Source: Christensenella sp. UBA1242 (GTDB lineage Bacteria; Bacillota; Clostridia; Christensenellales; UBA1242). Taken from it: DNA of 64,000 bases. Within the stretch, counting starts at the first letter, position 1. Each line of letters begins with the position of its first letter. Under the pieces are notes generated by a model. That model saw only the letters and a program-made list of their open reading frames with translations. It was not told the DNA's origin and made no database searches. Location of the stretch: assembly GCA_002308915.1 (NCBI GenBank), contig DBWI01000014.1:5340-69339 (forward strand), written 5' to 3'. A program made the position numbers and the translations under genes. Positions 11,753-53,844 of the stretch are shown one piece after another.

Positions 11753-11761
11753 GTTTGTAAT

Positions 11762-13847: not shown

Positions 13848-13848
13848 A

Positions 13849-13875
13849 TAAATCCCGTCTGGGATTTTTTTATTT
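13849..13875 (+). terminator. rho-independent terminator
   Basis: AATCCC(13851-13856) GTCT GGGATT(13861-13866) plus a T-run. Confidence 0.75.
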
Positions 13876-13919
13876 AAACAAAATTGACATAGATATATAA
13901 GTTATTGTACAATGCAGTT

Positions 13920-14402
13920 ATGAAAAAATTTAGCACATCAAAAAATGTTTATTATATTTTGGGTTTTGCAATTCTTCTTGTTCTTGGTGGAATTGCACTT
14001 TTGGTTTGGAGTATTTTTGATTTTAGTACAGACAAACTTATGGCAACAATAACCGTACTTTTTGTTGGTTTTACTATACTTGTTCCTTTGATAAAACATT
14101 CAAAATTAATATTTTGTAAGGTTTCATTTTCTAAAGACGGAATTAGTAAATTCTATCATGGAAAGTTGGTTGTTTTTATTGGTTGGCAAGAGATTAAAAA
14201 AATGGAAGTAATGCCAAGAATAAACAGATTTAATGAAACAAAAATGTATGTTCAAAAAACAGAATTCGCTACTAGTGAGTATATTAAAGACATGAGAGAA
14301 AACATCTATTTTGTAATCAATTTTAAAACACTTGCAGAACTTTTGAAATACAAAAAACAATTCCCAAAAGAAATTGTCAATCGTGAAGTTATAGGTATTT
14401 GA
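13920..14402 (+). CDS. hypothetical membrane protein
   Basis: Start taken at ATG 13920 (MKKFSTSK). Two N-terminal TM helices. No known motif. Confidence 0.5.
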   Translation: MKKFSTSKNVYYILGFAILLVLGGIALLVWSIFDFSTDKLMATITVLFVGFTILVPLIKHSKLIFCKVSFSKDGISKFYHGKLVVFIGWQEIKKMEVMPRINRFNETKMYVQKTEFATSEYIKDMRENIYFVINFKTLAELLKYKKQFPKEIVNREVIGI

Positions 14403-14405
14403 TAT

Positions 14406-15656
14406 ATGTCAAAAATTAACAAAAAATTAAATAATCTTACAAAAAATTTTGGTTTTAAAAAACAAGAACTTACCGAGATAAAAAAAATGTATCTTGGTGA
14501 GTTTTTTAATCCTCAAGATACAGCATATCAAAAACTTTTGAAGATATCAAAAAAACTATGTGATGAATACAACTCTATAGATAAAAATCTTAAGGAAAAA
14601 CTATCACTTTTTAAAACTATAAAAATATATTTCAAAAAGAAAAAAATAATCAACAAACTCTTTCCTTGTCACAAAATGATTGGAAGCATTAGACATGTTG
14701 ATACAATAATTGGACTTGTTGACCTTGATAACTTTGTATTCTTAAATAATGGTGCAAGTTTTTCTAAATATACTCTTACTCATATTGGCAGTGGTACAAT
14801 GTTTGGAGTAAAAGTTACTGTTGGTAGTGATGAAGTTGAAAAAAATGATAATTTAATTAAATTATCAAAAATTGAAATTGGTAAAAACACTTGGCTTGGT
14901 GCTGGTGCAAAAATATTTAATAACACAACGCTAAATGATGGATGTGTGGTTGCAAGTGGAGCAAATGTTTGCGATGATGTAAACAAAAATTCTTTGTACC
15001 TTGGCAGACCAGGAAAAAACTATTGCGTGTTAGATAAATCATATTCACCAAAACCAAAAATTCATCAAGATTACACACATGAGCAAGTTGAAAAAATTTA
15101 TTCCACAATTAAAAATCTTGGTTACAAAAGTGTATGGAAAGAATACAAAAAAATGCTAACCGGTCAAAAATTTAATACTTGTAAAATTAAGTTTGGAAAT
15201 CTGTTTTTGCTTACGCACAGACTTTGTGCTGAAATGAGTAACAAAGAAACAACAAAATCTCGTCGTGAACAAATTATTGATGTATTATTCCCTAACCATG
15301 GTGAAAATTTTGTTGTAGAAAATGATGTGTTTATTGATTTGCTTGGAAGTGTGGTTTGTGGTGATAATGTTACAATTAAAAGTGGAACTTATCTTGCAGG
15401 AAATGTTTTTATTGGTGACAATGTTACATTGCAAAATAATACAATAATTTTTGCAAGTGAACATGATATGATTGCTAGTGACAGAAAAATGCGATTTAAC
15501 TTGAAAAATGGTTTATATCGCTGGACTTGGACAGATACAGTTATTGTTAATTCAAATATCTCAATTGGAGAAAATGCAATAATTGTCCCTAGCACAGTGG
15601 TATCTCAAAATATTCCTGCAAACGCTCTTTGTACAAACAAAAAAATTATTGAATAA
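14406..15656 (+). CDS. tandem-duplicated sugar O-acetyltransferase (two left-handed beta-helix hexapeptide modules in one 416-aa chain)
   Basis: Each half has a Mac-like N-terminal helix region (YLGEFFNPQD..., MLTGQKFNT...) followed by hexapeptide repeats (IGKNTWLGAGAKI..., IGDNVTLQNNTII..., ISIGENAIIVPSTVV). Only the second half keeps the SEHD...DR catalytic-type segment. Confidence 0.7.
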   Translation: MSKINKKLNNLTKNFGFKKQELTEIKKMYLGEFFNPQDTAYQKLLKISKKLCDEYNSIDKNLKEKLSLFKTIKIYFKKKKIINKLFPCHKMIGSIRHVDTIIGLVDLDNFVFLNNGASFSKYTLTHIGSGTMFGVKVTVGSDEVEKNDNLIKLSKIEIGKNTWLGAGAKIFNNTTLNDGCVVASGANVCDDVNKNSLYLGRPGKNYCVLDKSYSPKPKIHQDYTHEQVEKIYSTIKNLGYKSVWKEYKKMLTGQKFNTCKIKFGNLFLLTHRLCAEMSNKETTKSRREQIIDVLFPNHGENFVVENDVFIDLLGSVVCGDNVTIKSGTYLAGNVFIGDNVTLQNNTIIFASEHDMIASDRKMRFNLKNGLYRWTWTDTVIVNSNISIGENAIIVPSTVVSQNIPANALCTNKKIIE

Positions 15657-20879: not shown

Positions 20880-20887
20880 TGTTTATT

Positions 20888-20926
20888 TGTGGATAAATTA
20901 AAAATTTTGTCAACAACTTGTCCACA
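20888..20926. promoter_or_regulatory. DnaA boxes in the dnaA-dnaN spacer
   Basis: TGTGGATAA 20888-20896 is a perfect box on the minus strand. TTGTCCACA 20918-20926 has one mismatch. An A/T-rich stretch at 21030-21065 lies downstream. Confidence 0.6.
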
Positions 20927-21078
20927 AAAAGCAAACACAATATATAGTGTAAAAAGAAAAATATTTTTCAAAAAATTACAATAATTTGTTGTGAAAAGAA
21001 CTTGTTAACATATCAACAGTGCATATAAATAAAACAACAATTTAATAATAAAAAAAATAAAAAGATAAGGAGAAAAAA

Positions 21079-22191
21079 ATGAAAGTAATTTGTGATGGAT
21101 TGGATTTGTCTGATGCAGTCTTAAAAGTAAGTAAAGCTATTGCAGTAAAAACAACTAATCCTGTTTTGGAAGGAATAAAACTTGTTGCAGAAGAAGATAG
21201 TTTAACACTATTTGCAACAGATCTTGAAATTTCAATCGAAAAGAAAATAAGAGCAGAAGTTCTTGAAGAAGGAAGTTGTGTTGTTCCTGGAAAGTTCTTT
21301 TGTGAATATGTTAAGAAATTAACAAATGAAAAAATTGAATTAACACTTAATGATAACAAGAATCTTGCTATTAAGTATGTTGATAGTGAAGGCTTTATTC
21401 AATGTTTTAATGAAGATGAATTCCCTAACATTAACTCATTAAGTTCTGCAGAATATTTTGGAATAACACAAAAAGGATTAAAGAATGTTATTAACAGAGC
21501 AATATTCTCTGTTGCAACAGATGATTCAAGACCAATTCTTAAAGGATGTTTGTTTGAAGTAGGTCAAGATGTTTTGAAAGCAGTTACTAGTGATGGTTAC
21601 AGACTTTCACTTGCAAGAGAAGTCCTTAATTTTAGTAACATTGAAACATCATGTATTGTTCCAGATAAAAGTTTGAGAGAAATTAGCAAATTACTTGATG
21701 ATAGCGACACAATAATCAATGTTTATGTTCAAAAGAATTTCTTGATGGTTGACCTTAATGATACAAAAGTTATAACAAGACTTCTTGAAGGTGAATTTTT
21801 GAAATATAATCAAATATTGTCATCTTCTGCAAAAGATACATCTGTTATTGTAAACAAAGAACAATTGTTAGATTCTTTGGAAAGAGCTTCCCTTCTTACA
21901 AGAATCGGCCAAAACAATCTTGTAAAATTTAGCATTAGTGAAGATGGACTTTTGGTAACTTCTAATTCTGAAATTGGCAATATTAAAGAAAAAATAAATA
22001 TTTCTCTTGAAGGAAAAGATATTGTTATTTCATTTAATGCAAAATACTTTTTGGATGCACTTAGAGTTGTTGAAAATGAGTTTATTAAAATTAATTTTTC
22101 AACACAATCAAATCCATGCACAATTACACCTGTTGACGGCGAAAAAGAAGATTATGTATATTTAATCTTACCTATAAGAACAATAAATTAA
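21079..22191 (+). CDS. dnaN: DNA polymerase III beta sliding clamp
   Basis: 370 aa directly after dnaA, RBS AAGGAG. Typical N-terminus MKVICDGLDLSDAVLKVSKAI...NPVLEGIKL and three-domain length. Confidence 0.93.
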   Translation: MKVICDGLDLSDAVLKVSKAIAVKTTNPVLEGIKLVAEEDSLTLFATDLEISIEKKIRAEVLEEGSCVVPGKFFCEYVKKLTNEKIELTLNDNKNLAIKYVDSEGFIQCFNEDEFPNINSLSSAEYFGITQKGLKNVINRAIFSVATDDSRPILKGCLFEVGQDVLKAVTSDGYRLSLAREVLNFSNIETSCIVPDKSLREISKLLDDSDTIINVYVQKNFLMVDLNDTKVITRLLEGEFLKYNQILSSSAKDTSVIVNKEQLLDSLERASLLTRIGQNNLVKFSISEDGLLVTSNSEIGNIKEKINISLEGKDIVISFNAKYFLDALRVVENEFIKINFSTQSNPCTITPVDGEKEDYVYLILPIRTIN

Positions 22192-26625: not shown

Positions 26626-27642
26626 ATGAATTTATTATTACTTAATTGGGATGAAATTGGTCAAGAAACATTAAATATTTTGAAAAAGCTTGGAATGAAC
26701 TTTGCCAATGCACTTGGAATTTTTATTGTTGGTTTTTTGCTAATAAGAGTTATTGTTATTTTGTTAAGGAAAATATTTTCAAAAACCAAAGTTCCAAAAG
26801 TGACATACAAGTTCATTATTAGTGTGACAAAATTTTCTTTATACTTGTTGCTTTTGTTGGTTATTTGTCAGGCAGTTGGAATTCCAACAACAGGATTTGT
26901 TGCACTTGTGTCTGCTGCAGGACTTGCTCTTTCACTTGCCCTTCAAGGCAGTTTGTCTAACCTTGCAAATGGTGTTGTTATTATTAGTACACAGCCATTT
27001 AAGGAAGGCGACTATATTTCTGTTAACGGACATGAAGGAACTGTTATTGAGATGAAAATGTTGCATACAATAATAAAAACTCCCGATAACAAAAGAATTA
27101 GTATTCCAAATTCAAAAATTGTTGAAAATGAACTTATTAACTACAACATTAATGTTACAAGAAGAGTAAACTTTGATTTTTCTGTTGACTATGCAACAGA
27201 TGTTGACAAAGCAAAAGAAATAATCATTAGTGTTATGAAAAGTAGTAATCTTGTTTTCACAGACCCAGCTCCATTTTGTGAACTAAAAACACTTGGTTCT
27301 AGCAGTATAAATTTGTTTGCATATTGTTGGTGTTATGGAAAAGATTATTGGACAGTATATTATTATGTTATGGATAATGTGTTTAATGAATTAAAGAGAA
27401 ATAATATAAATATACCATTTGGACAAATGGAAGTTAGACTTAGAAATGATGAAGTTAAAATGCCATACAGAGAGCAAGAACTTCCAGAAAGAAATGTTGA
27501 ACTTGCTGTTAAACCATATATTCCAGAAGATGGAGATATATTTGATAAAGCATTAAAGAATTTTAAAAAGAAACATCATAAAAAACCAAAAGAACCAAAG
27601 AAAGCAAAAGAAAAAGTAAAGAAAGAAAAAAATAAAAAGTAG
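26626..27642 (+). CDS. MscS-family mechanosensitive channel
   Basis: Three TM helices followed by the MscS beta-domain signature GDYISVNGHEGTVIEMKMLHTIIKTPDNKRISIPNSKI. Lys-rich tail. RBS AGGAGA. Confidence 0.85.
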   Translation: MNLLLLNWDEIGQETLNILKKLGMNFANALGIFIVGFLLIRVIVILLRKIFSKTKVPKVTYKFIISVTKFSLYLLLLLVICQAVGIPTTGFVALVSAAGLALSLALQGSLSNLANGVVIISTQPFKEGDYISVNGHEGTVIEMKMLHTIIKTPDNKRISIPNSKIVENELINYNINVTRRVNFDFSVDYATDVDKAKEIIISVMKSSNLVFTDPAPFCELKTLGSSSINLFAYCWCYGKDYWTVYYYVMDNVFNELKRNNINIPFGQMEVRLRNDEVKMPYREQELPERNVELAVKPYIPEDGDIFDKALKNFKKKHHKKPKEPKKAKEKVKKEKNKK

Positions 27643-27690: not shown

Positions 27691-29010
27691 TTAGTCTTCT
27701 GTTGAATTTGTTGTTAAGTCATCAGCAGCCACGCTTGCAATACATTCAACTCTTTGTTCTGGAACGCTAAGGCCTGGAGTTTTGATGTTTGCACGATGTG
27801 CATAATATGTGTTTGTTGAGTTGTCTGTCATTTGTGCATAGAAGTAAATGTATTCACCTGCAATTTCCATTGCACCTTGTTTGATGTTTTTAATTTCTGC
27901 AATTGTTTGAACATCTTCATCATTTTTGTAACTTTTTCTATAGATTCCATTGCTTGTTGAGTAGTAAACATATTCGCCATTAACAAGTTCAATTGTTGCG
28001 TCTTCATTAACTAAAACTTCAAAATTTCCACCAGCTTTTCCAATATATAATTTTGATTGAGCTTTGTATACAACAGCGTTTTCGTTTATAACTTTGAAAT
28101 CACTTACTGCATCTTCTGTGTTAGGGATTGTCCATACCACTTCTTCACCTATTCCATTCATGAATTTTGAAGAATAGTAAGAAAAGTCGCCATTTTCGTC
28201 TGCTTGTCTATAGTAAAGTGTGTTGTTTTCAAAAGTAATCAACTTCATTTCTTTTTCATTTTTTTGCACTTCTACATTTGCTTTGTTTGCAAGATTATAT
28301 CTGTACAAATAGTTTCCTGTAAGACCACTTGCTTTGTCTGTTTCACTTAAATCTTTTGTATAGAAAATATTTGAAAGAGTTGAATAGTTTGATGGGAATA
28401 CAACATCCAAAACATTTTCAACTAAAGTTGTTTGTGAACCCAAGTTATCTTTGATTTCAAGTTTTGAAATTTTGTTGTTATCAAAAATTAAAAGATATGG
28501 ATGTTCATCTGTAACCAAGAAGAATTTTCCTTGTGTTGTTTCGGTTGTTAAAATTTCCTTAAAGTTTGTTCCATCAACTTTGATTCTAAAGAGTGTTGTT
28601 AAATCAAACTTATCATTACCTGTTTTGTTTTCTTTGTGAACGTTTGGAGATGTGAAGTAGAGATAATTTCCAACAATAAACATATTTGAATTATTGAAAC
28701 CAGCCATTTTTGAATAAACTTTGCTAACTTCTGTTACTCTGTTGTCATCATCATGGAATGTGTATCCATTTTCATCTGTTTTAATTTTGAAAATTGCATT
28801 ATATTCTACATTGCTTTCTTTGTTCATTTCTCCTGAAAGTGTTGTGTAATCAACAAATGTGTTTGCAAAGAAAACATATTCGTCTGCAGTCACTACCCTG
28901 CCACCATTTGAAGATACGCTGTTTACAAGTTTTGGGTCTGCTCCGCAGCCAGCAAAAATAAAACATACGCTAAGCAATAATGCTGCCAATATTGATAAAT
29001 ACTTTTTCAT
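27691..29010 (-). CDS. lipoprotein with repeated aromatic beta-propeller-like blades (DUF5050-like)
   Basis: Lipobox FIFAGC. Recurring blade motifs YVFFAN, GNYLYFTS, NTLYYRQ, GEYVYYST, GEYIYFYA. Confidence 0.6.
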   Translation of the reverse strand: MKKYLSILAALLLSVCFIFAGCGADPKLVNSVSSNGGRVVTADEYVFFANTFVDYTTLSGEMNKESNVEYNAIFKIKTDENGYTFHDDDNRVTEVSKVYSKMAGFNNSNMFIVGNYLYFTSPNVHKENKTGNDKFDLTTLFRIKVDGTNFKEILTTETTQGKFFLVTDEHPYLLIFDNNKISKLEIKDNLGSQTTLVENVLDVVFPSNYSTLSNIFYTKDLSETDKASGLTGNYLYRYNLANKANVEVQKNEKEMKLITFENNTLYYRQADENGDFSYYSSKFMNGIGEEVVWTIPNTEDAVSDFKVINENAVVYKAQSKLYIGKAGGNFEVLVNEDATIELVNGEYVYYSTSNGIYRKSYKNDEDVQTIAEIKNIKQGAMEIAGEYIYFYAQMTDNSTNTYYAHRANIKTPGLSVPEQRVECIASVAADDLTTNSTED

Positions 29011-37313: not shown

Positions 37314-37937
37314 TTAATTATTGAAATTATTGTTTATGGTTTGTATTACATATTCTGTTGTTTGAGAAAAAACTTGTATTAATGAAGAGCTTTCTATTTG
37401 ATTGTTTAATACTTGATTTTTTATTATTGATTCGTTGGCAAATAAGGTAAGATAACATAATACACAAGAAATAAATATTCCTTTTGCGAAACCAATTAAT
37501 ATACCGGATATCTTGTCTAATATATTAGTTGGATGTGATTGCTCTGAGAATTTTATCATTTTATCTAATAAGAATTTAATTATTATTCGGATGAGCGTGT
37601 TTGTGAGAATAAAAATTATAGAATCTACAAGCAATTTTGATAAACTGATTTTTTGAGAATTGCTGTTTGTATGAAGAAAAAGCTTTATAAAATTGCTCAA
37701 TTTTGCATTTTTGTTTACAAAATCGACAATGCGCTCACTATTAAATATGTTAAAATTAAAATTTTCGTAATTTATTACATTATTTAATTGCGAAGATATT
37801 ACTGGGAGAAGTTTATAAGTTAGATATAACGATAATATTAGGGTAAAGAATGATGCAAGTGATTTTAATATTCCCCTTTTTAACCCCCAAACAGAATAAA
37901 TACACAAAACAATAATTATAATTAAATCTATAAGCAT
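37314..37937 (-). CDS. CvpA-like integral membrane protein
   Basis: Start preferred at M14 (MLIDLIIIIVLCIYSVWGLKRGILKSLASFFTLILSLYL), which resembles the CvpA N-terminal pattern. Four to five TM helices. Confidence 0.5.
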   Translation of the reverse strand: MLIDLIIIIVLCIYSVWGLKRGILKSLASFFTLILSLYLTYKLLPVISSQLNNVINYENFNFNIFNSERIVDFVNKNAKLSNFIKLFLHTNSNSQKISLSKLLVDSIIFILTNTLIRIIIKFLLDKMIKFSEQSHPTNILDKISGILIGFAKGIFISCVLCYLTLFANESIIKNQVLNNQIESSSLIQVFSQTTEYVIQTINNNFNN

Positions 37938-38115
37938 AAAATAATTATTGCAAAAACAAATATTTTTATAACGCAAAGCCTATTTTTTTGATTTTTAGCT
38001 TAAAATTGGGATTTAAAAAATCTTAATTCTAAGCGATTTTTGAAATTTTTGACGATATTTTACTTATGTCAAATTTTTGCGATTAAATGCCTATTTGCAT
38101 ACTTACTGTATACAA

Positions 38116-38325
38116 TGTTTCACGTGAAACAATTTATTATGTAAAAAATATTATTGTTAAAAAATGTTTCACGTGAAACAATTTGAATTTAAATCTATTC
38201 CTATAGAATTTTGAAATTGAATTTTTACAAATTTATTTATTTCAAAATATTAAAAAAATAGCAATGTTTCACGTGAAACATTGCTTAAATGAAATTGTTA
38301 TAAAATATATGTTTCACGTGAAACA
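38116..38325. repeat. cluster of four identical parS centromere sites
   Basis: TGTTTCACGTGAAACA (16-bp perfect palindrome) at 38116-38131, 38165-38180, 38265-38280 and 38310-38325. The third copy extends to the 24-bp palindrome GCAATGTTTCACGTGAAACATTGC (38261-38284). It matches the Firmicute parS consensus tGTTnCACGTGAAACa. Confidence 0.85.
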
Positions 38326-38330
38326 TTTAG

Positions 38331-38451
38331 TTATCCACATAAGTTATCCACATTTTTGCCATAAATTGTGGATAACTTGCCCTAAAATAGGTGTTTTGAT
38401 ATATTTTATAGTTGAATTGTACTACATTTATATATAGTTGACTGTGGATAA
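38331..38451. promoter_or_regulatory. cluster of four perfect DnaA boxes
   Basis: TTATCCACA at 38331-38339 and 38344-38352 (plus strand). TGTGGATAA at 38367-38375 and 38443-38451 (minus strand). All lie in noncoding AT-rich DNA. Confidence 0.85.
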
Positions 38452-38515
38452 GTTGAATAAAAAATCAGCCATAATGGCTGGTTTTTTGAATAATAAAATG
38501 AATTTTAAATATTAA

Positions 38516-43432: not shown

Positions 43433-43612
43433 ATGAACAATACAAAAACGCCGACAGCTGAAAAGGTCATGTTCCCGTTGCGATTACCACCTGATATGTA
43501 TAAGGAAATACGAAAAATTGTTGCAATAGAGCATGAGAAAGGAAATTATAGATACAGCACAAATGATTGTTTAACACAAATTATAGAAAAGGGATTGAAG
43601 GAGAAAAAATGA
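43433..43612 (+). CDS. ribbon-helix-helix (CopG/Arc-like) DNA-binding protein, candidate R-M controller
   Basis: AAGGAG RBS then ATG 43433. 59 aa; FPLRLPPDMYKEIRKIVA fits an RHH beta-strand plus helix. Its stop overlaps the next start (ATGA at 43609-43612). Confidence 0.65.
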   Translation: MNNTKTPTAEKVMFPLRLPPDMYKEIRKIVAIEHEKGNYRYSTNDCLTQIIEKGLKEKK

Positions 43613-45441
43613 AAAGAAGCGATATAATACAAACTGTTGGTAGTGAATTTTTAGTTAGTAATATAGAAAATGATGAATTCAAATATTCAAAAGAGTTTAA
43701 AAGGCTGTCAATACCTTTTACCCCAATAAAAAGTAGTAAGGGCAACAGACACTATGACAATTTGGATATTAGATTTGTTAATGACAATGTTTCTGTTTTA
43801 ATAGAAACAAAAGTTGATTTTGATAACGATATTGAAATGGCAAAAGAACAACTTTCAGCTTATGTGGAATATGAAAAACAAATTAATAACAACAAGATTG
43901 TTGCTATTTTGGCTAACACTTCAAACAATAAAGTTATGGTATGGCGTGGTGTAGTTTCAGATGCAGATTATATGCCAAATGAAACAGCCTTAAAAACAAT
44001 GCCAGAATATGTAGATTTTTACACTTCAAAAGTTAATGATAAAGAAAAAGTTATGGCGAATACTTATAAATTGAATGAACTTTTACATAAACATGGTATT
44101 AAAGAAAAATTAAGAAGTCAATTCGTTGGGACATGTTTATTGGCATTAAAAAATGGATTAGACTATAAATCAGTTACTCTTTCAAATTCTCAAATAAGAG
44201 CTGCAATTAAAGATACATTAGAAAAATTATTTAATGAAAATGGCGATTTAGAAAAAGCTAAAAAATTAGGCTTATTGGATGATAAAATACTGAAAAATCA
44301 AATTGTTAGATCATTAAAAATTGAAGATTTGAGAGAAATATTAATGTTTATAGAAGATAATATATTGCCTTTTATAAATGATAAAACAACAGCAGGACAA
44401 GATTTATTAAATTTGTTTTTTGTTACTTTTAATAAATATGTTGGTAAGGCTGACAAGAATCAAGCGTTTACACCCGACCACATAACAGATTTTATGTCTA
44501 AAATCACAGGAGTAAATAAACATTCTGTTATTTTAGACCCATGTTGTGGTAGTGGCTCATTTCTTGTAAGAGCAATGACACAAGCTTTAGATGATTGTGC
44601 AACTGAAAAAGAGCAAATAAAAGTGAAGAGAGAACAGATTTTTGGAATAGAATTTGATGAAGATGTGTATGGACTTGCAGCAACAAATATGCTTATTCAT
44701 AGTGATGGAAACTCTCACATAGTATGCGGTAGTTGTTTTGATTATAAGGAATGGATTATTAAGAATAAACCAAATGTTATTTTGATGAATCCACCTTATA
44801 ATGCGCAAAGAACACAAATGCCTGAAAAGTTTACAAAAACGTGGAATAAAGATAAAAAAGAAGACCCAACAAAAGGTTTCTACTTCGTGAAGTATATTGC
44901 AGACACGCTAAATGCAATTAATCAAACTGCAACACTTGCTGTATTGTTACCTGTTGCTTGTGCTATTGGAACAAGCAAAGAAATTGCAAATATAAAAGAA
45001 GAAATATTGAAAGAAAATACGCTTGACGCTGTATTTACATTACCAAGTGAAGTATTTTATCCTGGTGCATCCGCATCAGCTTGTTGTATGGTATTTAAAA
45101 TTGGTAAAAAACATAATGATATATCAAATCCTGACACTTTCTTTGGGTATTATAAAGATGATGGATTTAAGAAAAAGAAAAACTTAGGAAGAATTGAACA
45201 AACAGACCAACATGGCAATAGTCGTTGGGTTGAAATTGAAAAGCAATGGATTGAACTTTATAGAAATAGACAATCTAAAGATGGTTTATCAGCTACACAT
45301 AAAGTAGCAGGAAATGATGAGTGGCTTTGTGAAGCATATATGAAAACCGATTATTCAACATTAACTGAAGAAGATTTTCAAAAGACAATTAATGAATATC
45401 TTGCTTATTTAGTAAAAGAAGGTAATGTGCATGAATCTTAA
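43609..45441 (+). CDS. fused PD-(D/E)xK nuclease / N6-adenine DNA methyltransferase (Type IIB/IIG-like RM subunit)
   Basis: N-terminal D...ExK (NLDIRFVNDNVSVLIETKVD). Methyltransferase motif I VILDPCCGSGSFLVRA and motif IV VILMNPPYN (gamma-class order). 610 aa. RBS AGGAGA. Confidence 0.8.
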   Translation: MKRSDIIQTVGSEFLVSNIENDEFKYSKEFKRLSIPFTPIKSSKGNRHYDNLDIRFVNDNVSVLIETKVDFDNDIEMAKEQLSAYVEYEKQINNNKIVAILANTSNNKVMVWRGVVSDADYMPNETALKTMPEYVDFYTSKVNDKEKVMANTYKLNELLHKHGIKEKLRSQFVGTCLLALKNGLDYKSVTLSNSQIRAAIKDTLEKLFNENGDLEKAKKLGLLDDKILKNQIVRSLKIEDLREILMFIEDNILPFINDKTTAGQDLLNLFFVTFNKYVGKADKNQAFTPDHITDFMSKITGVNKHSVILDPCCGSGSFLVRAMTQALDDCATEKEQIKVKREQIFGIEFDEDVYGLAATNMLIHSDGNSHIVCGSCFDYKEWIIKNKPNVILMNPPYNAQRTQMPEKFTKTWNKDKKEDPTKGFYFVKYIADTLNAINQTATLAVLLPVACAIGTSKEIANIKEEILKENTLDAVFTLPSEVFYPGASASACCMVFKIGKKHNDISNPDTFFGYYKDDGFKKKKNLGRIEQTDQHGNSRWVEIEKQWIELYRNRQSKDGLSATHKVAGNDEWLCEAYMKTDYSTLTEEDFQKTINEYLAYLVKEGNVHES

Positions 45442-46450
45442 TATTGAAAATTGGAAAGAATTTAAAATAAAAGATATTTTTAGATTAGAGCCAACAAAAG
45501 GCATTGACTCAACTGAATTATTAGAAGGAAATGATATTAATTATATTGGAGCAAAACACGAAGATAATGGTTTGATGATGTGTTGCCAATTAGATGGATT
45601 TGAATCTTGGGTATCAAAAGGTAATTGTATTGTTTTTATTCAACTTGGAGCAGGAAGTGCCGGATATGCAAATTATATACCAGATGATTTTATTGGCATG
45701 AATGGTAAAACGCTTTGTGGTTATATAGATGGGATTATGAATCCTCAAATAGGACTGTTTTTAGAAACAATTTTATGTAAAGAAAGACCGAAATATTCTT
45801 TTGGAAGAAGCTGGACTGGTGATAGGCTTAGAGAAACTATAATAAAACTACCTGCAGACTCACAAGGAAATCCTGATTGGCAATTTATGGAAGATTATAT
45901 CAAATCTATAAACAATAAACCTATTAGCACAAAGAATAAGGGAGGGCAATTATCACCTATTCTTGGACAGACTAATTGGAAGGAATACAAATTAGGGCAA
46001 TTATTTTGTGATATTTATAAAGCTGAAGCCCATGTCAAAAATGATATTGATAATTTTGAGCATGGCAATAGTGATAGATTGGAATTTATTACAAGAACAG
46101 ATACAAATAATGGTTGTGATTGCTTTGTAAATAAAAACGATGTTAATGGCATCGAAAAAGGCAATGCAATTATTATTGGAGATACAACTTCAACAATTTA
46201 TTATCAAGCAAATAATTTTGTTGCTGGCGACCATATTGTTGTATGTCGTGCAGATTGGATAAATAAATATACTGCATTATTCCTTAAAACAATTTTAGAA
46301 AAAGAAAGATATAGATATAGTTACGGAAGAGCTTTTAAAATGGATTTAATTAAATCTACTATTGTTAAATTACCAACAAAAAATAATGAACCTGATTGGC
46401 AATATATGGAAAATTACATTAAATCTTTACCATATGGAGATAGAATATAA
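45431..46450 (+). CDS. HsdS-like DNA specificity subunit with two target-recognition domains
   Basis: Two half-repeats begin NWKEFKIKDIF and NWKEYKLGQLF. Each ends (N/E)PDWQ(F/Y)ME(D/N)YIKS(I/L). The start overlaps the upstream gene by 11 nt (ATG 45431) or 17 nt (ATG 45425). Confidence 0.8.
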   Translation: MNLNIENWKEFKIKDIFRLEPTKGIDSTELLEGNDINYIGAKHEDNGLMMCCQLDGFESWVSKGNCIVFIQLGAGSAGYANYIPDDFIGMNGKTLCGYIDGIMNPQIGLFLETILCKERPKYSFGRSWTGDRLRETIIKLPADSQGNPDWQFMEDYIKSINNKPISTKNKGGQLSPILGQTNWKEYKLGQLFCDIYKAEAHVKNDIDNFEHGNSDRLEFITRTDTNNGCDCFVNKNDVNGIEKGNAIIIGDTTSTIYYQANNFVAGDHIVVCRADWINKYTALFLKTILEKERYRYSYGRAFKMDLIKSTIVKLPTKNNEPDWQYMENYIKSLPYGDRI

Positions 46451-47618: not shown

Positions 47619-48950
47619 TTATTTACCAAGACAAAATTTGCTAAATATATCGTTTATAATTTCTTCTGTGGCACTTTCACCGGTGATTTTTCCAAGTTCT
47701 TGCCATACTCTTTTTGTTTGCATATCGACAATGTCAGCACTAAAGTTTGTGCTTTGGATTGCTTCATCAATTAAAGATATTGCATTTTCTATTGCAATTT
47801 TGTGTCTTTGGTTTGTTATATAAAGTTGAGAAAAATCAATTTTGTCAACTCTAGTTTTTTCAAGAATTGAGTCAAGAATTTTGTCAATATTTTGGTTGTT
47901 TAATGCACTAACCAAAATTGCATTGTCTAATTTTGTAACAATTTGCTTGTCTGTTTTGTTAAGGATATAGAGTGTGTTTTTGTCTTTGATAAGGCTAAGT
48001 AATTCTTCATCTTCTTTGTCAAGTTTTTCGCTTGCATCAAAAATTGCAAGAATAATATCGGAATTGTTAAGCATTTGTTTGCTTTTTTCTACACCAATTT
48101 TTTCAACAATATCATCACTATTTCTGATTCCTGCTGTGTCAACAAAATTAATTTTTAATCCTTTGTACGAAATTGTTTCTTTTAGAACATCTCGAGTTGT
48201 TCCTTTGATTTCTGTTACAATGGCTCTATCTTCACCAATTAACCTATTGAGAAGACTGCTTTTCCCCACATTAGGTTTTCCAACAATTGCAACTGTTATT
48301 CCAAATTTTATTTTTTGACCAGTTGTGTAACTGTCTTTTAACTTTTCTAATTCTTGTTTGCTGTTTTGCAAAGTTTGTTTAACTTGGTTAATAGACATTT
48401 CTTCATCATCATGTTCGGGGTAGTCAAGAGAAACTTCCAAGTTGACAAGACAGTCCTTTAGATTGTCTTGAATTGTTTTTATTGTTTTGAAAAGCATGCC
48501 ATCTGTTAAGTTACTTGAAGCCTTGAGTTCTGCATCACTTGTGGCATTTATCATATCAATTGTTGCTTCTGCTTCATCGAGTGACATTTTGCCATTCATG
48601 AATGCACGCTTGGAAAATTCACCATTTTGTGCAAGTTCACAACCATTTTCTACTAATTTTTGCAAAATTTTTGTTGCAAGGTATTCTCCACCATGGATTT
48701 GAAATTCTACAACATCTTCACCAGTGAATGAGTATGGAGCTTTGAAGTAAACCATCATACACTTTTCAAAAGCGTTGTCACCAAGGTTGAACTTGCCAAG
48801 ATACATCTTTCTTGGTTCAATGTTATCTTTGGTTAAATTTTTTGCACAAAAAAGATTAAAGGCAATTTGCATTGCCTTGTCTCCACTTGTTTTTACTATT
48901 GAGATTCCGCCACTACCTAGAGGCGTAGATATCTGCGCTATTGTCTTCAT
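47619..48950 (-). CDS. mnmE: tRNA modification GTPase
   Basis: G1 GKPNVGKSSLLN, G3 DTAGIR, N-terminal THF-binding fold and C-terminal FCLGK (CxGK) motif. RBS GGAG. Confidence 0.95.
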   Translation of the reverse strand: MKTIAQISTPLGSGGISIVKTSGDKAMQIAFNLFCAKNLTKDNIEPRKMYLGKFNLGDNAFEKCMMVYFKAPYSFTGEDVVEFQIHGGEYLATKILQKLVENGCELAQNGEFSKRAFMNGKMSLDEAEATIDMINATSDAELKASSNLTDGMLFKTIKTIQDNLKDCLVNLEVSLDYPEHDDEEMSINQVKQTLQNSKQELEKLKDSYTTGQKIKFGITVAIVGKPNVGKSSLLNRLIGEDRAIVTEIKGTTRDVLKETISYKGLKINFVDTAGIRNSDDIVEKIGVEKSKQMLNNSDIILAIFDASEKLDKEDEELLSLIKDKNTLYILNKTDKQIVTKLDNAILVSALNNQNIDKILDSILEKTRVDKIDFSQLYITNQRHKIAIENAISLIDEAIQSTNFSADIVDMQTKRVWQELGKITGESATEEIINDIFSKFCLGK

Positions 48951-49896
48951 GTTTCTCCGTTGTTTGAGTGTATTTTGTTATTGCTTGATTGTATGCTTGT
49001 TTTGCAAGTCCATTTAATGTTATTAAATATTCTTTATAACTAGGTGTTATATAATATCCAAGATGTTCTATTTCTCTTATTGAATTTTTAATGTCAAAAT
49101 GTTTTAGTGTTTGTTTTAGGTATTCCATATATGTTGGTTTTGTTTGAGCCAACAAAACTATTTGTTCAACATCCTTTTTATATATTTTTTGATAGTCAAC
49201 CAAAATGCATTCATCATTGCAAAAGAAGTGCATATTTTGACCATGGTCAAACAAAAATCCTGATGTACCTAATAACTCTTTTTGTTCTAATGCAATACAC
49301 ATTGTACTTCCGCCAAAAGCTAATTCATTGTCAACTACTGGTGCAAGTTCATAAGTTTTATTTTGTCTGTCGTATAAAAAATTTAGGTTGTTGTGACGAT
49401 CTTCTTGAAATGTTAATGAGTCAAGTACCATAAGTTTGAATAGGTCAAAAGCTAGTTTGTCGATATCGGTATTGCTTTTGATTAAATTAAAATGGTCAAT
49501 TAGTCCTTGATAAGTAATATCATAAACAATTTTTCCATACATTTCTTGAATTGATACTAACTGTTTGTTTTTTGTTACAAAATTGTAACTTACTAGTCCA
49601 ACTTGTTTTTCATTGTGAGCAGCTTCGTATTCAGCCACTTTAACTCCATGTCTTTTTGCTAAGTTGCAATAAAGTAATTCATTTAATACTCTAATTTTTG
49701 ACATGTTTCCATCGTATGTTTTAAATAAGGCTTCTCCCTTTGGGGTTATGAACCAAACTTTTCCAAATGGGACAGAAGAAATACCAGTTTCACCAGTTCT
49801 TATTTTTGTGATAAAATCTTGCAAATTTATACCCTTTGCAAGTTTGATGTTTTTGTATTTCTTTTTATTTTTTATTAGATAACTAAATTTTACCAT
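48913..49896 (-). CDS. HipA_C-like kinase-fold protein, paralog 5 of 5
   Basis: 327 aa. DSLTFQEDRHNNLN catalytic-loop-like motif and LAPVVDNELAFG. RBS GAGGAAA. The last 38 nt overlap the mnmE start. Confidence 0.8.
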   Translation of the reverse strand: MVKFSYLIKNKKKYKNIKLAKGINLQDFITKIRTGETGISSVPFGKVWFITPKGEALFKTYDGNMSKIRVLNELLYCNLAKRHGVKVAEYEAAHNEKQVGLVSYNFVTKNKQLVSIQEMYGKIVYDITYQGLIDHFNLIKSNTDIDKLAFDLFKLMVLDSLTFQEDRHNNLNFLYDRQNKTYELAPVVDNELAFGGSTMCIALEQKELLGTSGFLFDHGQNMHFFCNDECILVDYQKIYKKDVEQIVLLAQTKPTYMEYLKQTLKHFDIKNSIREIEHLGYYITPSYKEYLITLNGLAKQAYNQAITKYTQTTEKHEDNSADIYASR

Positions 49897-50891
49897 AGTA
49901 TTTCCTCAACATCGTAATCAAAACATTGTGGGTGAATTTGTTTTGTTTCTTTTATTGTACTAACAAAAATTTGTTTTGACAAGTCGGTTATATCTTTTAG
50001 ATATTTTTTATAGTCAGCAGAGATTTTGTAACCTAGTTGTTCAACATTATTTATTGCGCTTTCTATATTAATATTGTTTAGACATTTTATGACAAATTCC
50101 TCATATTCTTTTCTGCCATATGACATTTGCAATAAATGTTTGAGATTTTCTTTGTATCTTACATCTGTAGACAAATAAGTTGTTCTGTCGTAAACAGGGA
50201 ACATCATATATCCTGCATGAGTTTTTAAAAAGTCTTGTGTTCTCATTTGTTCAGAACCAAAATTGTGGAATTTGTTGATTGTTTTTACGCCAAATGCAAA
50301 TTCGTTGTCGATAATAGGGGAAAGTTTGATTGTGTTATCCTTGGTGAGCAGAAAATGAATATTTGAATTGTGTCTGTCTTCTTGGAATGTCAATTCGTCA
50401 AGAATCATCATTTTAAACAAATCAAAATATATTTCTTTTTCATTAAAATTGTAGTCAACACGATAAACACTTAAAGCACGATAAAATGTTTCAAAATTAT
50501 CAATAACAAGATCCTTTCCAAATAGTTCACTAAGCTCAATTAATTTTTCGCCATTTTTTGCAACATCTATGCTTATAAGCCCAACATCTTTGTTTATATT
50601 CGCAGGTTTGTATTCTGCAACCTTAACACCAACTTGTTTTGCTACTTCATTGTATAATAGTTCACTGATAATTCTTAAATCTTTTGAAACATTAAAATCA
50701 TAATGTTTATACGACTTAAAAAGACCCTTGCCATATTTTGTAACAAACCATGTGTCACCATAGCCAATTGTTGATATTCCTTCAGTATAGTTATAGCGTT
50801 TAATTTTTTTTAAGTGTTTTATATCAATACCTTTGGCGAGTTTAAGGGTTTTGTATTTTCCTTTGTTTTTTAATAAAATTTTATTTCTCAT
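49890..50891 (-). CDS. HipA_C-like kinase-fold protein, paralog 4 of 5
   Basis: 333 aa. DELTFQEDRHNSNIHF and LSPIIDNEFAFG. Overlaps paralog 5 by 7 nt and paralog 3 by 11 nt. Confidence 0.8.
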   Translation of the reverse strand: MRNKILLKNKGKYKTLKLAKGIDIKHLKKIKRYNYTEGISTIGYGDTWFVTKYGKGLFKSYKHYDFNVSKDLRIISELLYNEVAKQVGVKVAEYKPANINKDVGLISIDVAKNGEKLIELSELFGKDLVIDNFETFYRALSVYRVDYNFNEKEIYFDLFKMMILDELTFQEDRHNSNIHFLLTKDNTIKLSPIIDNEFAFGVKTINKFHNFGSEQMRTQDFLKTHAGYMMFPVYDRTTYLSTDVRYKENLKHLLQMSYGRKEYEEFVIKCLNNINIESAINNVEQLGYKISADYKKYLKDITDLSKQIFVSTIKETKQIHPQCFDYDVEEILW

Positions 50892-51882
50892 TTATAATGT
50901 TTTCAACCTTTTTGTTATTAGAAAGCTCTGCGATATTTTCTTGAAATATTTCTTTTGATAAATTTGCTAAGTCAATTAAATAATTTTTGTAATCATAAGT
51001 GAATTGGTATCCATAGTCTTGCAATTTTTCAATTGCAGAAACCATATCTAAATTATTTAGTGCTTGCAACAAAAATTGCTTACAATTTTCATTTTTTTGT
51101 GCCAAACTTATTAAACTTTTTACATTATATACATATCTTTGAGTTCTTGGAATTTTGTTACCTTCTTGATCTACAAAAAATATTATATTTTGTCCATGAC
51201 ATGAAATAAATTTATCTTTGTATACATACAATGAAGAACAATCAAAGCCATGGCAGTAGTCAGTCATTGTTTTGATACCAAAAGCAAATTCGTTGTCAAT
51301 AATAGGTGATAGTCTTATGCTGTTGTTTGTGTCATTTACTATAAAATGTATGTTGTTATTATGTCTGTCTTCTTGGAAGGTAAGGGCATCAAAAACCATC
51401 ATTTTGTATAAGTCCAAAACCATTTTTTGTTTATCGTAATTTATATTTTTTGAATCCAAACTTTGCAAAATACTTTTTATTGAATATTTTGGTTCATCGT
51501 TAAAAAATGAAATACAATTTTGTATTTTTTCATTTTCACCACAAACATTGTATGAAATTACACCTTTTTTGAAATCAACATGTGCAGGTTCATAAATTGC
51601 AGTATCAATCCCAATTTGTTTTGCTATTTCGTAGCACAATACTTCGTTTGCATTTCTTATGTATTTTAACTCAATAAAATTCGCATTTTGAGCATTATAT
51701 GACTTAAAAATTCCAAGCCCGTTTTTTGTGTTAAACCAAACATTTTTATATTCATCTTCAACTGATATTCCGGTGGAAGTGTTTTGTCTAAACTTTGTGT
51801 TTACAGCGCCAAGCCAAATGCCTTTTGCAACTTTGAGTACTTGGTAATAGCCATTTATTTTTATTATAGGATTATTTGTCAT
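50881..51882 (-). CDS. HipA_C-like kinase-fold protein, paralog 3 of 5
   Basis: Start moved to ATG 51882 (MTNNPIIKING) behind GGAGGA at 51896-51891. DALTFQEDRHNNNIHF and LSPIIDNEFAFG. Overlaps the paralog 2 stop by 11 nt. Confidence 0.8.
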   Translation of the reverse strand: MTNNPIIKINGYYQVLKVAKGIWLGAVNTKFRQNTSTGISVEDEYKNVWFNTKNGLGIFKSYNAQNANFIELKYIRNANEVLCYEIAKQIGIDTAIYEPAHVDFKKGVISYNVCGENEKIQNCISFFNDEPKYSIKSILQSLDSKNINYDKQKMVLDLYKMMVFDALTFQEDRHNNNIHFIVNDTNNSIRLSPIIDNEFAFGIKTMTDYCHGFDCSSLYVYKDKFISCHGQNIIFFVDQEGNKIPRTQRYVYNVKSLISLAQKNENCKQFLLQALNNLDMVSAIEKLQDYGYQFTYDYKNYLIDLANLSKEIFQENIAELSNNKKVENIINEK

Positions 51883-52873
51883 AGATTTTATCCTCCAATA
51901 CAATGGAGTCTTGGCATTCTTGGCGTATTTCAGAAATACATTCTTTGAATGTGTTTTTTGATATTTTAATCAAATTTTTGACATAATTTTTGTATTCTGG
52001 CGAGATTTCGTATCCCAATTTTTCAACATTTTGGAATGCTTCTTCAATATTTAATTTGTGCAAAGCAAGGAATAAAAAGTTTTGCATTCTTTTGCTTTTT
52101 GTTGCCAATCTTACTAATTCTTTTATGTTTGCCTTATATCTTTGTTCACATGGCAATTTGCTTACAACTGTGTTTACATGCAATCTTATTGCTTCGCCGT
52201 GAAGTTTCATAAATGTGTTGTAGTCAATGTATTTAAATTTGTTGGCTTCATCAGAATTTAATGTTAGGGCGGCAAAACACATTTCGTTATCAATTAGTGG
52301 GGCACAAGTAAGGTAACCATCTTTATGATTTACTAAAAATGTCATATTATGTTCATGTCTGTCTTCTTGAAATGTTAGGGAGTCAAGAATCATCATTTTG
52401 TATAGGTTCATTTTGATATTACTTTTGTCAACATAATATCCTTCGCCTTCTTTAAAAATATCAAGGGCTTTTATGTAATCAACAAAAACATTGAATCCAC
52501 CAAATTCATCGTAATCTAGTAGTCCGCAGCCATCCATAAGTTCTTCATTGGATTTTGCAATATCCATACTAAGAAGACCGTTGTATTTTTTATAGTGAGC
52601 TGGTTTATATTTTGCAACAGATATACCTAATTGTTTTGCAAGTTCATCATACAAAAGTTCATTGGCAATTCTTGTTCCATCCATATCTATGTTGTAGTTT
52701 TTAAAAATTCCTCTGCCTTTTGGAGTTATAAACCACCTTGAGCCAAATCTTGACGTGGAAATACCTTTGACACCTGTTCTTTTTTGAGTGTCAAATTCTT
52801 CCAAATTTAATCCCAATGCGGGTTTGAGAGGTACAAGTTTGTATTTCTCTTTGTTTTTGATTATGGCTTTCAT
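51872..52873 (-). CDS. HipA_C-like kinase-fold protein, paralog 2 of 5
   Basis: 333 aa. DSLTFQEDRHEHNMTF and CAPLIDNEMCFA. AAGGA RBS. Starts 8 nt after the paralog 1 stop. Confidence 0.8.
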   Translation of the reverse strand: MKAIIKNKEKYKLVPLKPALGLNLEEFDTQKRTGVKGISTSRFGSRWFITPKGRGIFKNYNIDMDGTRIANELLYDELAKQLGISVAKYKPAHYKKYNGLLSMDIAKSNEELMDGCGLLDYDEFGGFNVFVDYIKALDIFKEGEGYYVDKSNIKMNLYKMMILDSLTFQEDRHEHNMTFLVNHKDGYLTCAPLIDNEMCFAALTLNSDEANKFKYIDYNTFMKLHGEAIRLHVNTVVSKLPCEQRYKANIKELVRLATKSKRMQNFLFLALHKLNIEEAFQNVEKLGYEISPEYKNYVKNLIKISKNTFKECISEIRQECQDSIVLEDKIYDK

Positions 52874-52881
52874 TTTTTCCT

Positions 52882-53844
52882 TTATTTTTGAAAATCATCT
52901 TTTTTGCGTTGCTTGTCAATTTGTTTTTTGTAACATTTTTTTGCAAGTTTTTCTAATTCCAAAAGATACAATTCGTAATCAGATGGAATTACGTGTCCTT
53001 TTTGACGAACATTATCTATTGCTTGTCTGAAATTTACATTTGTAAGCATTTTTACTAATATTTCTTTCTTTTGTTCATCTTGTGCTGCAATTTTTACAAT
53101 GTTATTTATATTATCAATATAACCCCTTCTTGAAGATGTTAAAGATGTTATAGGTATTGTTTCTGCAACATAATCCAAGTTTATGCTGTGTGAATACAAG
53201 AAAGATTTTTCTGCAATACCTTTTTCGTCGTAAACAACATTTTCTTGAAAACCACCAAATGCAAATTCGTTGTCAAGTATTGGTGCTAATTTAATTGTGT
53301 TATTTTTTTCATTATACAAGAACAATATATTTGAGTCGTGTCTGTCTTCTTGGAATGTTAATGAATCAAAAACCAATAATTTGTATAGGTCATTTGATGT
53401 TTTTTCAACATCAATATTATATCCGTGTTCATTTTTGAGAGTGTTAAGTGTTTGTATGTATTCTTTGAATGTGTTTGAAGGGTAGCCACTATTTACAATT
53501 TCTACAAGTTGCTCACCATCAATAATAACATCATCTTCATGTTCTCTTATATCATAAGAAACTAAGCCAGTTTTGTTTTTATAGTTTGCAGTTTCATATT
53601 TTGCCATATTAAGACCAAGTTGTTTGCCAAGTTCAAAACAGATAAGTTCATTTGCCATTCTCATTTCTGTTGTGCTTGTACCAAAAAACTTTTTGTCATA
53701 ATCTTTAAAATACAATTTTCCTTGTGGAGTATAAAAAAACCTAAGCACAATATCTTCTTGGCTTTTAAATTTGTCTAAATATATTCCTTTGGCGAGTTTA
53801 ATTCTGTCAAATTTGTTTTTATTTTTAATAATTATATTACTCAC
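52882..53844 (-). CDS. HipA_C-like kinase-fold protein, paralog 1 of 5
   Basis: 320 aa. GTG start with no SD, located at the predicted TSS. DSLTFQEDRHDSNILF and LAPILDNEFAFGG. The N-terminus IIIKNKNKFDRIKLAKGI aligns with the other four. Confidence 0.75.
   Translation of the reverse strand: MSNIIIKNKNKFDRIKLAKGIYLDKFKSQEDIVLRFFYTPQGKLYFKDYDKKFFGTSTTEMRMANELICFELGKQLGLNMAKYETANYKNKTGLVSYDIREHEDDVIIDGEQLVEIVNSGYPSNTFKEYIQTLNTLKNEHGYNIDVEKTSNDLYKLLVFDSLTFQEDRHDSNILFLYNEKNNTIKLAPILDNEFAFGGFQENVVYDEKGIAEKSFLYSHSINLDYVAETIPITSLTSSRRGYIDNINNIVKIAAQDEQKKEILVKMLTNVNFRQAIDNVRQKGHVIPSDYELYLLELEKLAKKCYKKQIDKQRKKDDFQK

Follow-up and report, generated by a model that had tools for sequence, protein, structure and literature searches.

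The DNA considered here is a 64-kb window (64,000 nucleotides of contig DBWI01000014.1, assembly GCA_002308915.1) from Christensenella sp. UBA1242, a member of the Clostridia, and the element in question is the 539-bp intergenic gap that separates the chromosome partition gene parB from a cvpA-like membrane protein gene (Table 1). Four perfect copies of parS, the candidate loading sites of ParB, and four perfect binding sites (boxes) for the replication initiator DnaA lie side by side in this gap, in a compact module of about 330 bp. The gene parB ends a block of minus-strand genes, mnmG-rsmG-parA-parB, and the genes that flank the gap share one orientation. The A+T content of the gap is 77.6%, compared with a mean of 75.2% for the intergenic DNA of the window. 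An identical copy of the window sequence is present in the Logan assembly of SRR5324861.

The parS copies, all of them the 16-mer TGTTTCACGTGAAACA, conform to the consensus TGTTNCACGTGAAACA, a 16-bp palindrome; cognate parA and parB genes adjoin them, and dnaA lies 17 kb away, as befits origin-proximal sites. Outside the gap, the 64-kb window contains no parS match with fewer than three mismatches. When up to three mismatches are allowed, the window has six matches against 1.08 expected, a number that none of 100 shuffles reached. Judged from these consensus matches, the parS array is the centromere of the chromosome, onto which ParB would be loaded.

The four DnaA boxes, TTATCCACA in each case, fall within 121 bp. 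Boxes 3 and 4 form a direct repeat (D5), in which AGTTATCCACAT occurs twice, and box 4 is separated by 5 nt from the nearest parS. All four have the extended form AGTTATCCACA(T), which is also the form of the strong box found in the dnaA-dnaN spacer of the family. The window contains one further perfect box, in its own dnaA-dnaN spacer; the total of five compares with 0.72 expected and was reached in 0 of 100 shuffles. In box-cluster density, the gap scores 16.3 and the next-best cluster of the window 6.7. A preliminary description of this DNA had reported four identical parS palindromes, four perfect boxes with two on each strand, and initiator-binding DNA densest at a distance from dnaA, and these statements hold; the extended palindrome around one parS copy, given there as 24 bp, measures 26 bp.

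Table 1. Positions in the window of the genes and sequence elements at the parB-cvpA gap and at the dnaA-dnaN spacer
Feature	Position	Strand	Remarks
dnaA	19515-20879	(+)	
dnaA-dnaN spacer	20880-21078	(+)	candidate canonical oriC
Spacer box	20888-20896	(-)	perfect
Spacer box TTGTCCACA	20918-20926	(+)	
Degenerate tandem box TTGTTAACA	21002-21010		
Degenerate tandem box ATATCAACA	21010-21018		
GC cluster GTGCA	21019-21023		
Six NAN trios	21024-21041		TAT AAA TAA AAC AAC AAT, then A/T tract to dnaN start
dnaN	21079-22191	(+)	
cvpA-like membrane protein gene	37314-37976	(-)	Pfam Colicin_V 1.3e-16; co-oriented with parB
Promoter-like site for cvpA	38026-38089	(-)	TTGACA-16-AAAAAT, 38072-38045; overlaps short direct repeats
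Direct repeat AAATTTTTG(A)CGAT	38044-38057 and 38072-38084		
parS copy furthest from parB	38116-38131		perfect
parS copy	38165-38180		perfect
Most AT-rich stretch of gap	38190-38260		88.7% A+T; flanked by parS copies
parS copy	38265-38280		perfect; within 26-bp perfect palindrome, 38260-38285
parS copy nearest DnaA boxes	38310-38325		perfect TGTTTCACGTGAAACA
DnaA box 4	38331-38339	(+)	perfect; tandem with box 3, 4 nt between
DnaA box 3	38344-38352	(+)	perfect; inverted relative to box 2, 14 nt between (inverted repeat I15)
DnaA box 2	38367-38375	(-)	perfect TTATCCACA, parB-sense strand
Box 1-box 2 spacer	38376-38442		67 nt, 74.6% A+T
DnaA box 1	38443-38451	(-)	perfect TTATCCACA, parB-sense strand, 64 nt past parB stop
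Intrinsic terminator of parB operon	38456-38480	(-)	hairpin CAGCCATTATGGCTG plus T-run; terminator scan
parB, 348 aa	38516-39562	(-)	Pfam ParB_N 6.6e-34, HTH_ParB 7.1e-35; NCBIfam parB_part 185 bits (above cut-off)
parA, Soj-type partition ATPase, 271 aa	39564-40379	(-)	Pfam AAA_31 3.1e-70, CbiA; NCBIfam ParA_partition

We followed this arrangement through 36 ParB-matched loci in species-representative genomes and 18 further DnaN-matched loci in metagenomes; the former come nearly all from metagenome-assembled genomes (MAGs) of uncultured gut Clostridia, some of them labelled Christensenella sp. by their depositors. The layout is kept in 13 of the 15 closest loci that have a post-parB gap (ParB 75 to 79% identical to that of the window), so that 14 genomes, the window included, carry the module. 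Their common order after parB is the terminator, box 1, an AT-rich spacer, box 2, the inverted boxes 3 and 4, and the parS array. A hairpin with a T-run stands at the same position in every relative. In 13 of the 14 module-bearing genomes, box 1 is perfect and keeps its place and orientation; at the exception, locus L004, it is inverted and forms part of the terminator stem. The parB terminator hairpin of L004 (3270-3300) consists of a pair of DnaA boxes in inverted orientation (TTACCCACA ... TGTGGATAA), and a T-run comes after it. Box 2 is TTATCCACA or TTGTCCACA in all 14 genomes, and box 3, 13 to 14 nt further on, is perfect (TGTGGATAA, inverted) in all of them; the distance between the starts of the two is 22 to 23 nt in 13 genomes and 33 nt in L004. 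Box 4 is more variable (TGTGGATAA, TGTGTATAA-like, or weaker) and follows box 3 after 3 to 4 nt, with a start distance of 12 to 13 nt.

Sequence and length are conserved to different degrees within the module. Boxes 2 and 3 are 98% identical between the 14 genomes, and box 1-box 2 spacers of equal length are about 45% identical, which is near random for their composition. The length of this spacer is 56 to 57 nt in seven genomes, which form one subclade, and 65 to 67 nt in the other seven. The two length classes differ by 10 bp, and the one further change of length, that between boxes 2 and 3 of L004, is also of about 10 bp; such steps of roughly one helical turn suggest a helical phasing of the boxes. 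From box 4 to the first parS there are 5 to 17 nt in nine of the 14 genomes and 45 to 70 nt in the remaining five. Relatives with an uncut gap have three to seven parS sites (at most one mismatch) within 1.7 kb past parB, and in most relatives, outgroups included, two to seven directly follow parB. A single perfect DnaA box occurs 2.36 to 2.94 kb past the end of parB in L004, L007 to L011, and L013, between the cvpA-like gene and arsR; it has no counterpart in the window.

The boxes can be lost while the centromere stays. At L013 and L038, the terminator and three to four parS sites are kept and the DnaA boxes are gone; L038 shows no box remnants after parB and has no perfect box in its entire 21 kb, which includes dnaA. 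Both loci are nested within the box-bearing clade in a neighbor-joining tree of ParA and ParB, and their loss of boxes with retention of parS indicates that the boxes are dispensable. In the same tree, the fully boxed L012, L014, and L015 are basal to the clade of the window, which makes the module ancestral to that clade. The terminator of L013 is of the same type as those of its boxed sisters L006, L007, and L009, and the losses in L013 and L038 are therefore probably independent. In the next clade out (L017 to L021 and L039 to L041; ParB about 65% identical), dnaA is divergent and adjoins parA, the dnaA-dnaN spacer holds three to four perfect boxes, and only two to three parS sites follow parB. 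No boxes lie close to parS in outgroups that share the ParAB system.

The best box cluster of the more distant relatives is at dnaA, with one exception, L030, a Clostridia MAG (JAZSQZ010000083.1). Here about 4 kb of DNA past parB (10761-14812) contain no open reading frame (ORF) of more than 77 codons and carry five parS sites plus a near-parS at 14385, together with a cluster of six DnaA boxes (about 13546-13800), three perfect and three with a single mismatch. The 20.7 kb of L030 that were examined do not include dnaA, and the GC skew around the cluster is uninformative. DnaA boxes and a post-parB parS array may have come together more than once, with L030 as a second, probably independent case.

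A dense cluster of perfect boxes in noncoding DNA, adjoining the classical origin-indicator gene parB and with AT-rich DNA close by, is what a search for the replication origin would look for. The preliminary description considered the gap as possibly the true oriC. In this reading, which extends to a lineage-specific alternative oriC, origin and centromere are fused within about 0.5 kb, and the dnaA-dnaN spacer is a decaying former origin; the box cluster in the parS-rich noncoding stretch of L030 and the weakened spacer boxes of the clade of the window are in its favor. Strand composition speaks against it. We split the skew at third codon positions (GC3 skew) of each gene into a coding term and a strand term, using pooled third-position counts; four-fold degenerate sites were rejected for the purpose because this 30%-GC genome offers too few G+C sites per gene and the values are noisy, and skew at these sites changes sign at no tested break point. 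The strand term is +0.272 ± 0.045 at 27.7 to 38.0 kb, +0.245 ± 0.044 at 38.5 to 49 kb, and +0.211 ± 0.032 at 49 to 64 kb. It thus has the same sign and size on both flanks of the gap, whereas an origin needs opposite signs, and there is no polarity switch. The term is positive throughout 1 to 64 kb (+0.108 ± 0.040 at 1 to 19.4 kb), and no switch occurs from about -5 kb to 64 kb, that is, in the window and a 5-kb left flank taken from the identical Logan contig; the genes on this flank show no leading-strand signature. The raw cumulative GC skew, which had been named as a check on the origin, reaches its minimum within the window at about 11 to 13 kb, not at 38 kb. We also observed that the strand term steps from about +0.1 to about +0.25 at 27.6 kb (between the genes at 26626-27642 and 27691-29010) with no change of sign, which may mark an old rearrangement boundary.

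The relatives bear this out. In the window, the genes oriented toward the gap (mnmE, mnmG, rsmG, parA, and parB) have a pooled GC3 skew of -0.34 and those oriented away from it (cvpA, arsR, tmk, and two more) one of -0.32; were the gap an origin, the latter would have to be leading-strand genes, and their skew is of the lagging type. Relative to the window orthologues, the toward-gap genes of the relatives are shifted by +0.19 to +0.52 and the away genes by +0.18 to +0.51, box-less relatives included. Since both flanks shift together in every relative, the block that includes the gap is crossed by replication forks in one direction in each genome, and the copy in the window is inverted relative to replication. 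In no relative are the upstream genes lagging-strand-like. Heavy rearrangement of the region among relatives may blur the skew. A pattern in favor of an origin is that of the L008 genome, in which about 31 kb are nearly all on one strand (maf, dnaA, dnaN, rpmH, rnpA, yidC, jag, mnmE, mnmG, rsmG, parA, parB, cvpA, and tmk) and the GC3 skew of the co-oriented genes is -0.25 up to dnaN, then about -0.1, and climbs to +0.2 to +0.37 past the gap. The co-oriented dnaA-to-parB gene order seen in this genome and its relatives (L058, L059, and L060) is unusual for a Firmicute; at the same loci an opposite-strand gene of 363 to 366 aa with no assigned function lies between rsmG and parA, and it is missing from the window.

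The gap also lacks the means of unwinding that are found at Firmicute origins. A basal unwinding module consists of a box (at most two mismatches), a distance of 0 to 16 nt, at least three NAN DnaA trios, and an AT-rich tract (PMC8287927). Beside the four boxes of the gap, the longest run within 16 nt is one to two trios; at the flank of box 1, the longest run is two in the window and below three in 7 of the 14 genomes, and neither this flank nor the spacer is conserved in sequence. Lying away from any skew switch, between co-oriented genes, and without boxes in L013 and L038, close relatives of which the second has no perfect box even near dnaA, the gap is rather unlikely to be the origin. 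Origin finders that score box density near indicator genes would probably call it oriC all the same, and such a call is likely to be incorrect across an entire clade of gut Clostridia, all of them known from metagenome assemblies only.

The dnaA-dnaN spacer presents the opposite picture, few strong boxes and a conserved unwinding signature. In agreement with the preliminary description, no box with fewer than two mismatches is found in the 110 bp upstream of dnaA, and the spacer has one perfect and one single-mismatch box; the contrast drawn there with the parB gap is correct as to box strength and misleading as to function, since the spacer keeps the signature of the unwinding module. Alignment of the spacer across 12 genomes (DnaN 55 to 75% identical to that of the window) and trio scoring in 14 spacers (homologues at L016, L037, L038, L058, L060, L017, L019, L020, L039, L043, and L045 to L047) gave a common 3' part, in which a strong box and a half-degenerate box precede a G/C-rich cluster of 3 to 5 nt, the trios, and an A/T tract that reaches the dnaN ribosome-binding site. 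There are five to seven NAN trios, mostly six, ending at a conserved TTAAA in 12 of the 14 spacers; the window, with six, is in register with these, and its spacer conforms to the unwinding-module rule. Taken singly, the trio run of the window is matched by 27% of shuffles (at least six trios, lenient box criterion), so that the argument rests on the conservation of register across genomes. The candidacy of the dnaA-dnaN spacer as the origin draws on two things, this conserved module and Firmicute precedent.

In the clade of the window, the strong box of the spacer has turned into TTGTTAACA or TAGTTAACA, and few perfect boxes, if any, occur: none in L016 and L038, two in L037, and none, with three single-mismatch boxes, in the L008 genome and L060. 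The trio-adjacent box is TTGTTAACA in the window, L016, and L038. A strong cluster at parB and weak boxes in the spacer thus coincide at the level of the clade, which amounts to one evolutionary event and not to a statistic. Compensation of the weak spacer by the parB module was considered and rejected on account of L038, which has a weak spacer and no module. The complementarity of the two sites, strong boxes and no unwinding element in the gap and an unwinding signature with weak boxes in the spacer, could also mean that the gap is half of a bipartite origin, as had been suggested, a sub-origin of boxes alone that loops to an unwinding half in the spacer. Bipartite origins are described for Bacillus subtilis, Helicobacter pylori, and Clostridioides difficile. 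The halves of known bipartite origins are split only by the dnaA gene and act as one unit. The two clusters discussed here are instead 17 kb apart and inverted in the window and about 10 kb apart and direct in L038 and the L008 genome, and L038, whose weak spacer has no post-parB boxes, shows that the spacer works without a partner. We therefore regard a bipartite origin as very improbable.

The boxes stand with the parB terminator on one side and the first parS on the other in every module-bearing genome, a position that invites the idea that they act locally. DnaA bound there might be a roadblock or insulator that stops transcriptional read-through into parS or the sliding of ParB clamps into parAB, or it might regulate a neighboring promoter; the terminator stem of L004, built of two inverted boxes, fits such a role, and DnaA is a known transcription factor, with an oriCII cluster that regulates gidAB-parAB in Pseudomonas aeruginosa (PMC13438810). 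Still, a good intrinsic terminator is already in place, and its T-run is present on the plus strand too, so that it may be bidirectional. The promoter-like sites of the region do not exceed chance (8 found against 9.4 expected), which makes the annotation of a cvpA promoter weak; a promoter within the box 1-box 2 spacer was rejected, the matches there being at chance level and unconserved, with no conserved -35/-10 pair. The parS array stands between the boxes and the cvpA promoter, and a four-site architecture of constrained length exceeds what a roadblock needs. We consider a purely local role unlikely.

Alternatively, DnaA at the centromere could license or trigger movement driven by ParABS, independently of any control of initiation. 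Box 4 lies within 5 to 17 nt of the first parS in most of the module-bearing genomes, and in Caulobacter crescentus the binding of DnaA to boxes of the parS region allows the centromere to move (Mera et al. 2014, as cited in PMC6399470). A general requirement of this kind sits poorly with the parS arrays of L013 and L038, which have no boxes, with outgroups that use the same ParAB system with box-free parS, and with the box-to-parS distances of 45 to 70 nt in five genomes. It is, in our view, quite improbable.

Taken together, these observations suggest that the gap is probably a DnaA-box cluster outside oriC, of the type of the B. subtilis DnaA-box clusters (DBCs) or of datA and DARS of Escherichia coli, that has become joined to a ParB-loading centromere. 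It has what defines such a cluster, several high-affinity boxes in noncoding DNA away from the origin, and the combined DnaA-titration and ParB-loading hub that the preliminary description offered as its third option agrees with the conserved anatomy and with precedent, its function being deduced from these. By consensus match and precedent, DnaA would occupy the four boxes as one box, a spacer of constrained length, and one box that faces two tandem boxes; the fixed geometry would let the bound molecules touch, probably across bent or looped DNA, in a small complex. As no trio or other unwinding element adjoins the boxes, we propose that this complex cannot unwind DNA. It might hold DnaA, inactivate it, or exchange its nucleotide, and initiation would thereby be tuned. 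If the origin is at dnaA-dnaN, a locus 10 to 17 kb from it would be copied soon after initiation, doubling the sink for DnaA. The boxes abut parS, which would place the DnaA complex inside the ParB partition complex, where ParB stimulates the ATPase of ParA (Soj). In B. subtilis, ParA (Soj) directly regulates DnaA. Initiator control and segregation might in this way be coupled at one locus.

Several points weigh against this interpretation. A skew switch is absent at dnaA as well, so the true origin was not located by skew. In the L008/L010/L011 subclade, the upstream genes are shifted by +0.24 to +0.25 and the downstream genes by +0.46 to +0.51, which leaves room for a polarity change between dnaN and the gap. 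The spacers of the clade have zero to two perfect boxes, compared with two to four in the outgroups, and can be read as evidence of an origin function that is migrating to the parB gap. The loss of boxes is deduced from a neighbor-joining tree of two proteins, the 10-bp quantization of the spacers is based on two evolutionary events only, and the binding of ParB and DnaA, in an uncultured organism, is predicted from consensus matches.

A bolder and fairly unlikely version of the coupling would have the high-affinity DnaA sites moved from the origin to the centromere: dnaA-dnaN would have kept the unwinding module and given up its strong boxes, and a four-box platform within the ParB complex would act on it remotely. 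Such a platform could be a catalytic site like DARS or datA, a bridge between origin and centromere, or a second usable origin, for example, in the L008 group. If true, the licensing of replication would have passed, in nature, to the segregation locus. Whichever version applies, the compactness of the module, its fixed geometry, and the natural loss variants L013 and L038 should make it possible to move it into B. subtilis as a test system.

The remaining parts of the gap are less regular. Two stretches had been described as very AT-rich; that at 38190-38260 is so, although its position is not kept in relatives, and that at 37980-38100, with 77.7% A+T, is ordinary for the intergenic DNA of the window. 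On the cvpA side, the direct repeat AAATTTTTG(A)CGAT is present as described, and short direct repeats (AAATTTTTGACGAT / AAATTTTTGCGAT plus GCGATTTTTGAAAT) at 38026-38089 overlap the promoter-like site of the cvpA-like gene. These short repeats could be an operator; relatives, with cvpA-like genes of only 30 to 36% identity, do not keep the repeats of this side. An origin of the region from a plasmid replicon or plasmid centromere was considered and dropped, as no similar DNA was found among 72,556 plasmid records.

Elsewhere in the window, type I restriction-modification genes for a methylase (N6_Mtase) and a specificity subunit (43567-46450, plus strand) lie between mnmG and mnmE, which are directly adjacent in most relatives; the pair is probably an insertion tied to local rearrangement. 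Next to mnmE (47619-48950), five tandem overlapping paralogues of 320 to 340 aa with weak matches to HipA_C (kinase-like) occupy 48913-53844 on the minus strand, and relatives have one to two such genes upstream of mnmE. At the left end, a stretch of 5.7 kb that appeared to be free of ORFs (1-5716, minus strand) is part of a gene for a surface protein of 2108 aa with Flg_new and LRR_5 domains; the gene extends past the end of the window, and ORFs cut by an end are absent from the ORF list. It is followed by a paralogue-like gene of 708 aa (5709-7835).

Among known systems, the closest to the gap are the oriC-proximal DBCs of B. subtilis, which act as a brake on initiation and show a synthetic-sick interaction with spo0J loss (Okumura et al. 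2012, PMC3245932). They too are noncoding, intergenic clusters of high-affinity boxes outside oriC, near the origin region in a Firmicute, with one cluster at thdF(mnmE)-jag, and they interact genetically with Spo0J/Soj (ParB/ParA) (PMC3245932). The cluster in the gap differs from them in abutting parS, at 5 nt, directly after the parB terminator and in having a four-box geometry that is conserved in a clade; PMC3245932 describes no juxtaposition of DBCs with parS. With datA and DARS of E. coli the gap shares the character of a chromosomal box cluster in which orientation and spacing matter (PMC5742627). The essential boxes of datA all face the same way on either side of an IHF-binding site, datA requires the DNA to bend between two of its boxes, and proximity to oriC leads to early duplication of the locus; in the DARS core, box I opposes boxes II and III at a fixed spacing (PMC5742627). 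Box 2 of the gap faces the tandem boxes 3 and 4 in the manner of the DARS core, a likeness of topology alone. In contrast to datA, boxes 1 and 2 of the gap are opposite in orientation to boxes 3 and 4, so that the likeness to datA is limited to an inter-box gap of constrained length. Unlike the cluster in the gap, the two E. coli loci have no linked centromere; to our knowledge, E. coli has no ParABS system.

Other precedents combine initiator binding with partition loci. In Caulobacter crescentus, the boxes bound by DnaA are likewise at the chromosomal centromere, downstream of parB and apart from the origin, and centromere movement occurs at DnaA levels that do not suffice for initiation (Mera et al. 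2014, according to PMC6399470). That bacterium belongs to another phylum, and the gap has four perfect consensus boxes in a fixed array by parS that two lineages have dispensed with. On chromosome 2 of Vibrio cholerae, the initiator RctB is titrated at rctA/parS2, next to ParB2, which represses replication (PMC6399470); there too a site of the initiator-titrating type adjoins a ParB site near an origin, and titration in the gap would be by analogy with it, the V. cholerae initiator being RctB, not DnaA, and the replicon plasmid derived. The oriCII cluster of P. aeruginosa, at gidA, resembles the gap as a DnaA-box cluster at a gidAB-parAB-type locus away from the dnaA-adjacent region, at which DnaA is a regulator and not an initiator (PMC13438810); it lies upstream of the operon and controls a promoter, whereas the cluster in the gap lies downstream of the terminator, by parS. 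Finally, a canonical Firmicute oriC with its basal unwinding system (PMC8287927) likewise has consensus boxes in AT-rich noncoding DNA near origin-region genes. The gap departs from it in having neither box-adjacent trios nor a polarity switch and in being dispensable, and it is the dnaA-dnaN spacer of the window that fits.

Our literature searches found no work on Christensenell* that deals with oriC and DnaA and, among titles and abstracts, none describing DnaA boxes and parS arranged in this way downstream of parB. A fixed four-box array within nucleotides of a parS array, directly after the parB terminator, is found in none of the systems compared. Model organisms show no more than a genetic link or a looser proximity between initiator control and segregation, as with the B. 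subtilis DBCs and Spo0J/Soj or with DnaA at the parS region of Caulobacter; the module described here appears to be a natural, evolutionarily stable fusion of an initiator-binding cluster with a ParB-loading site, only nucleotides apart.

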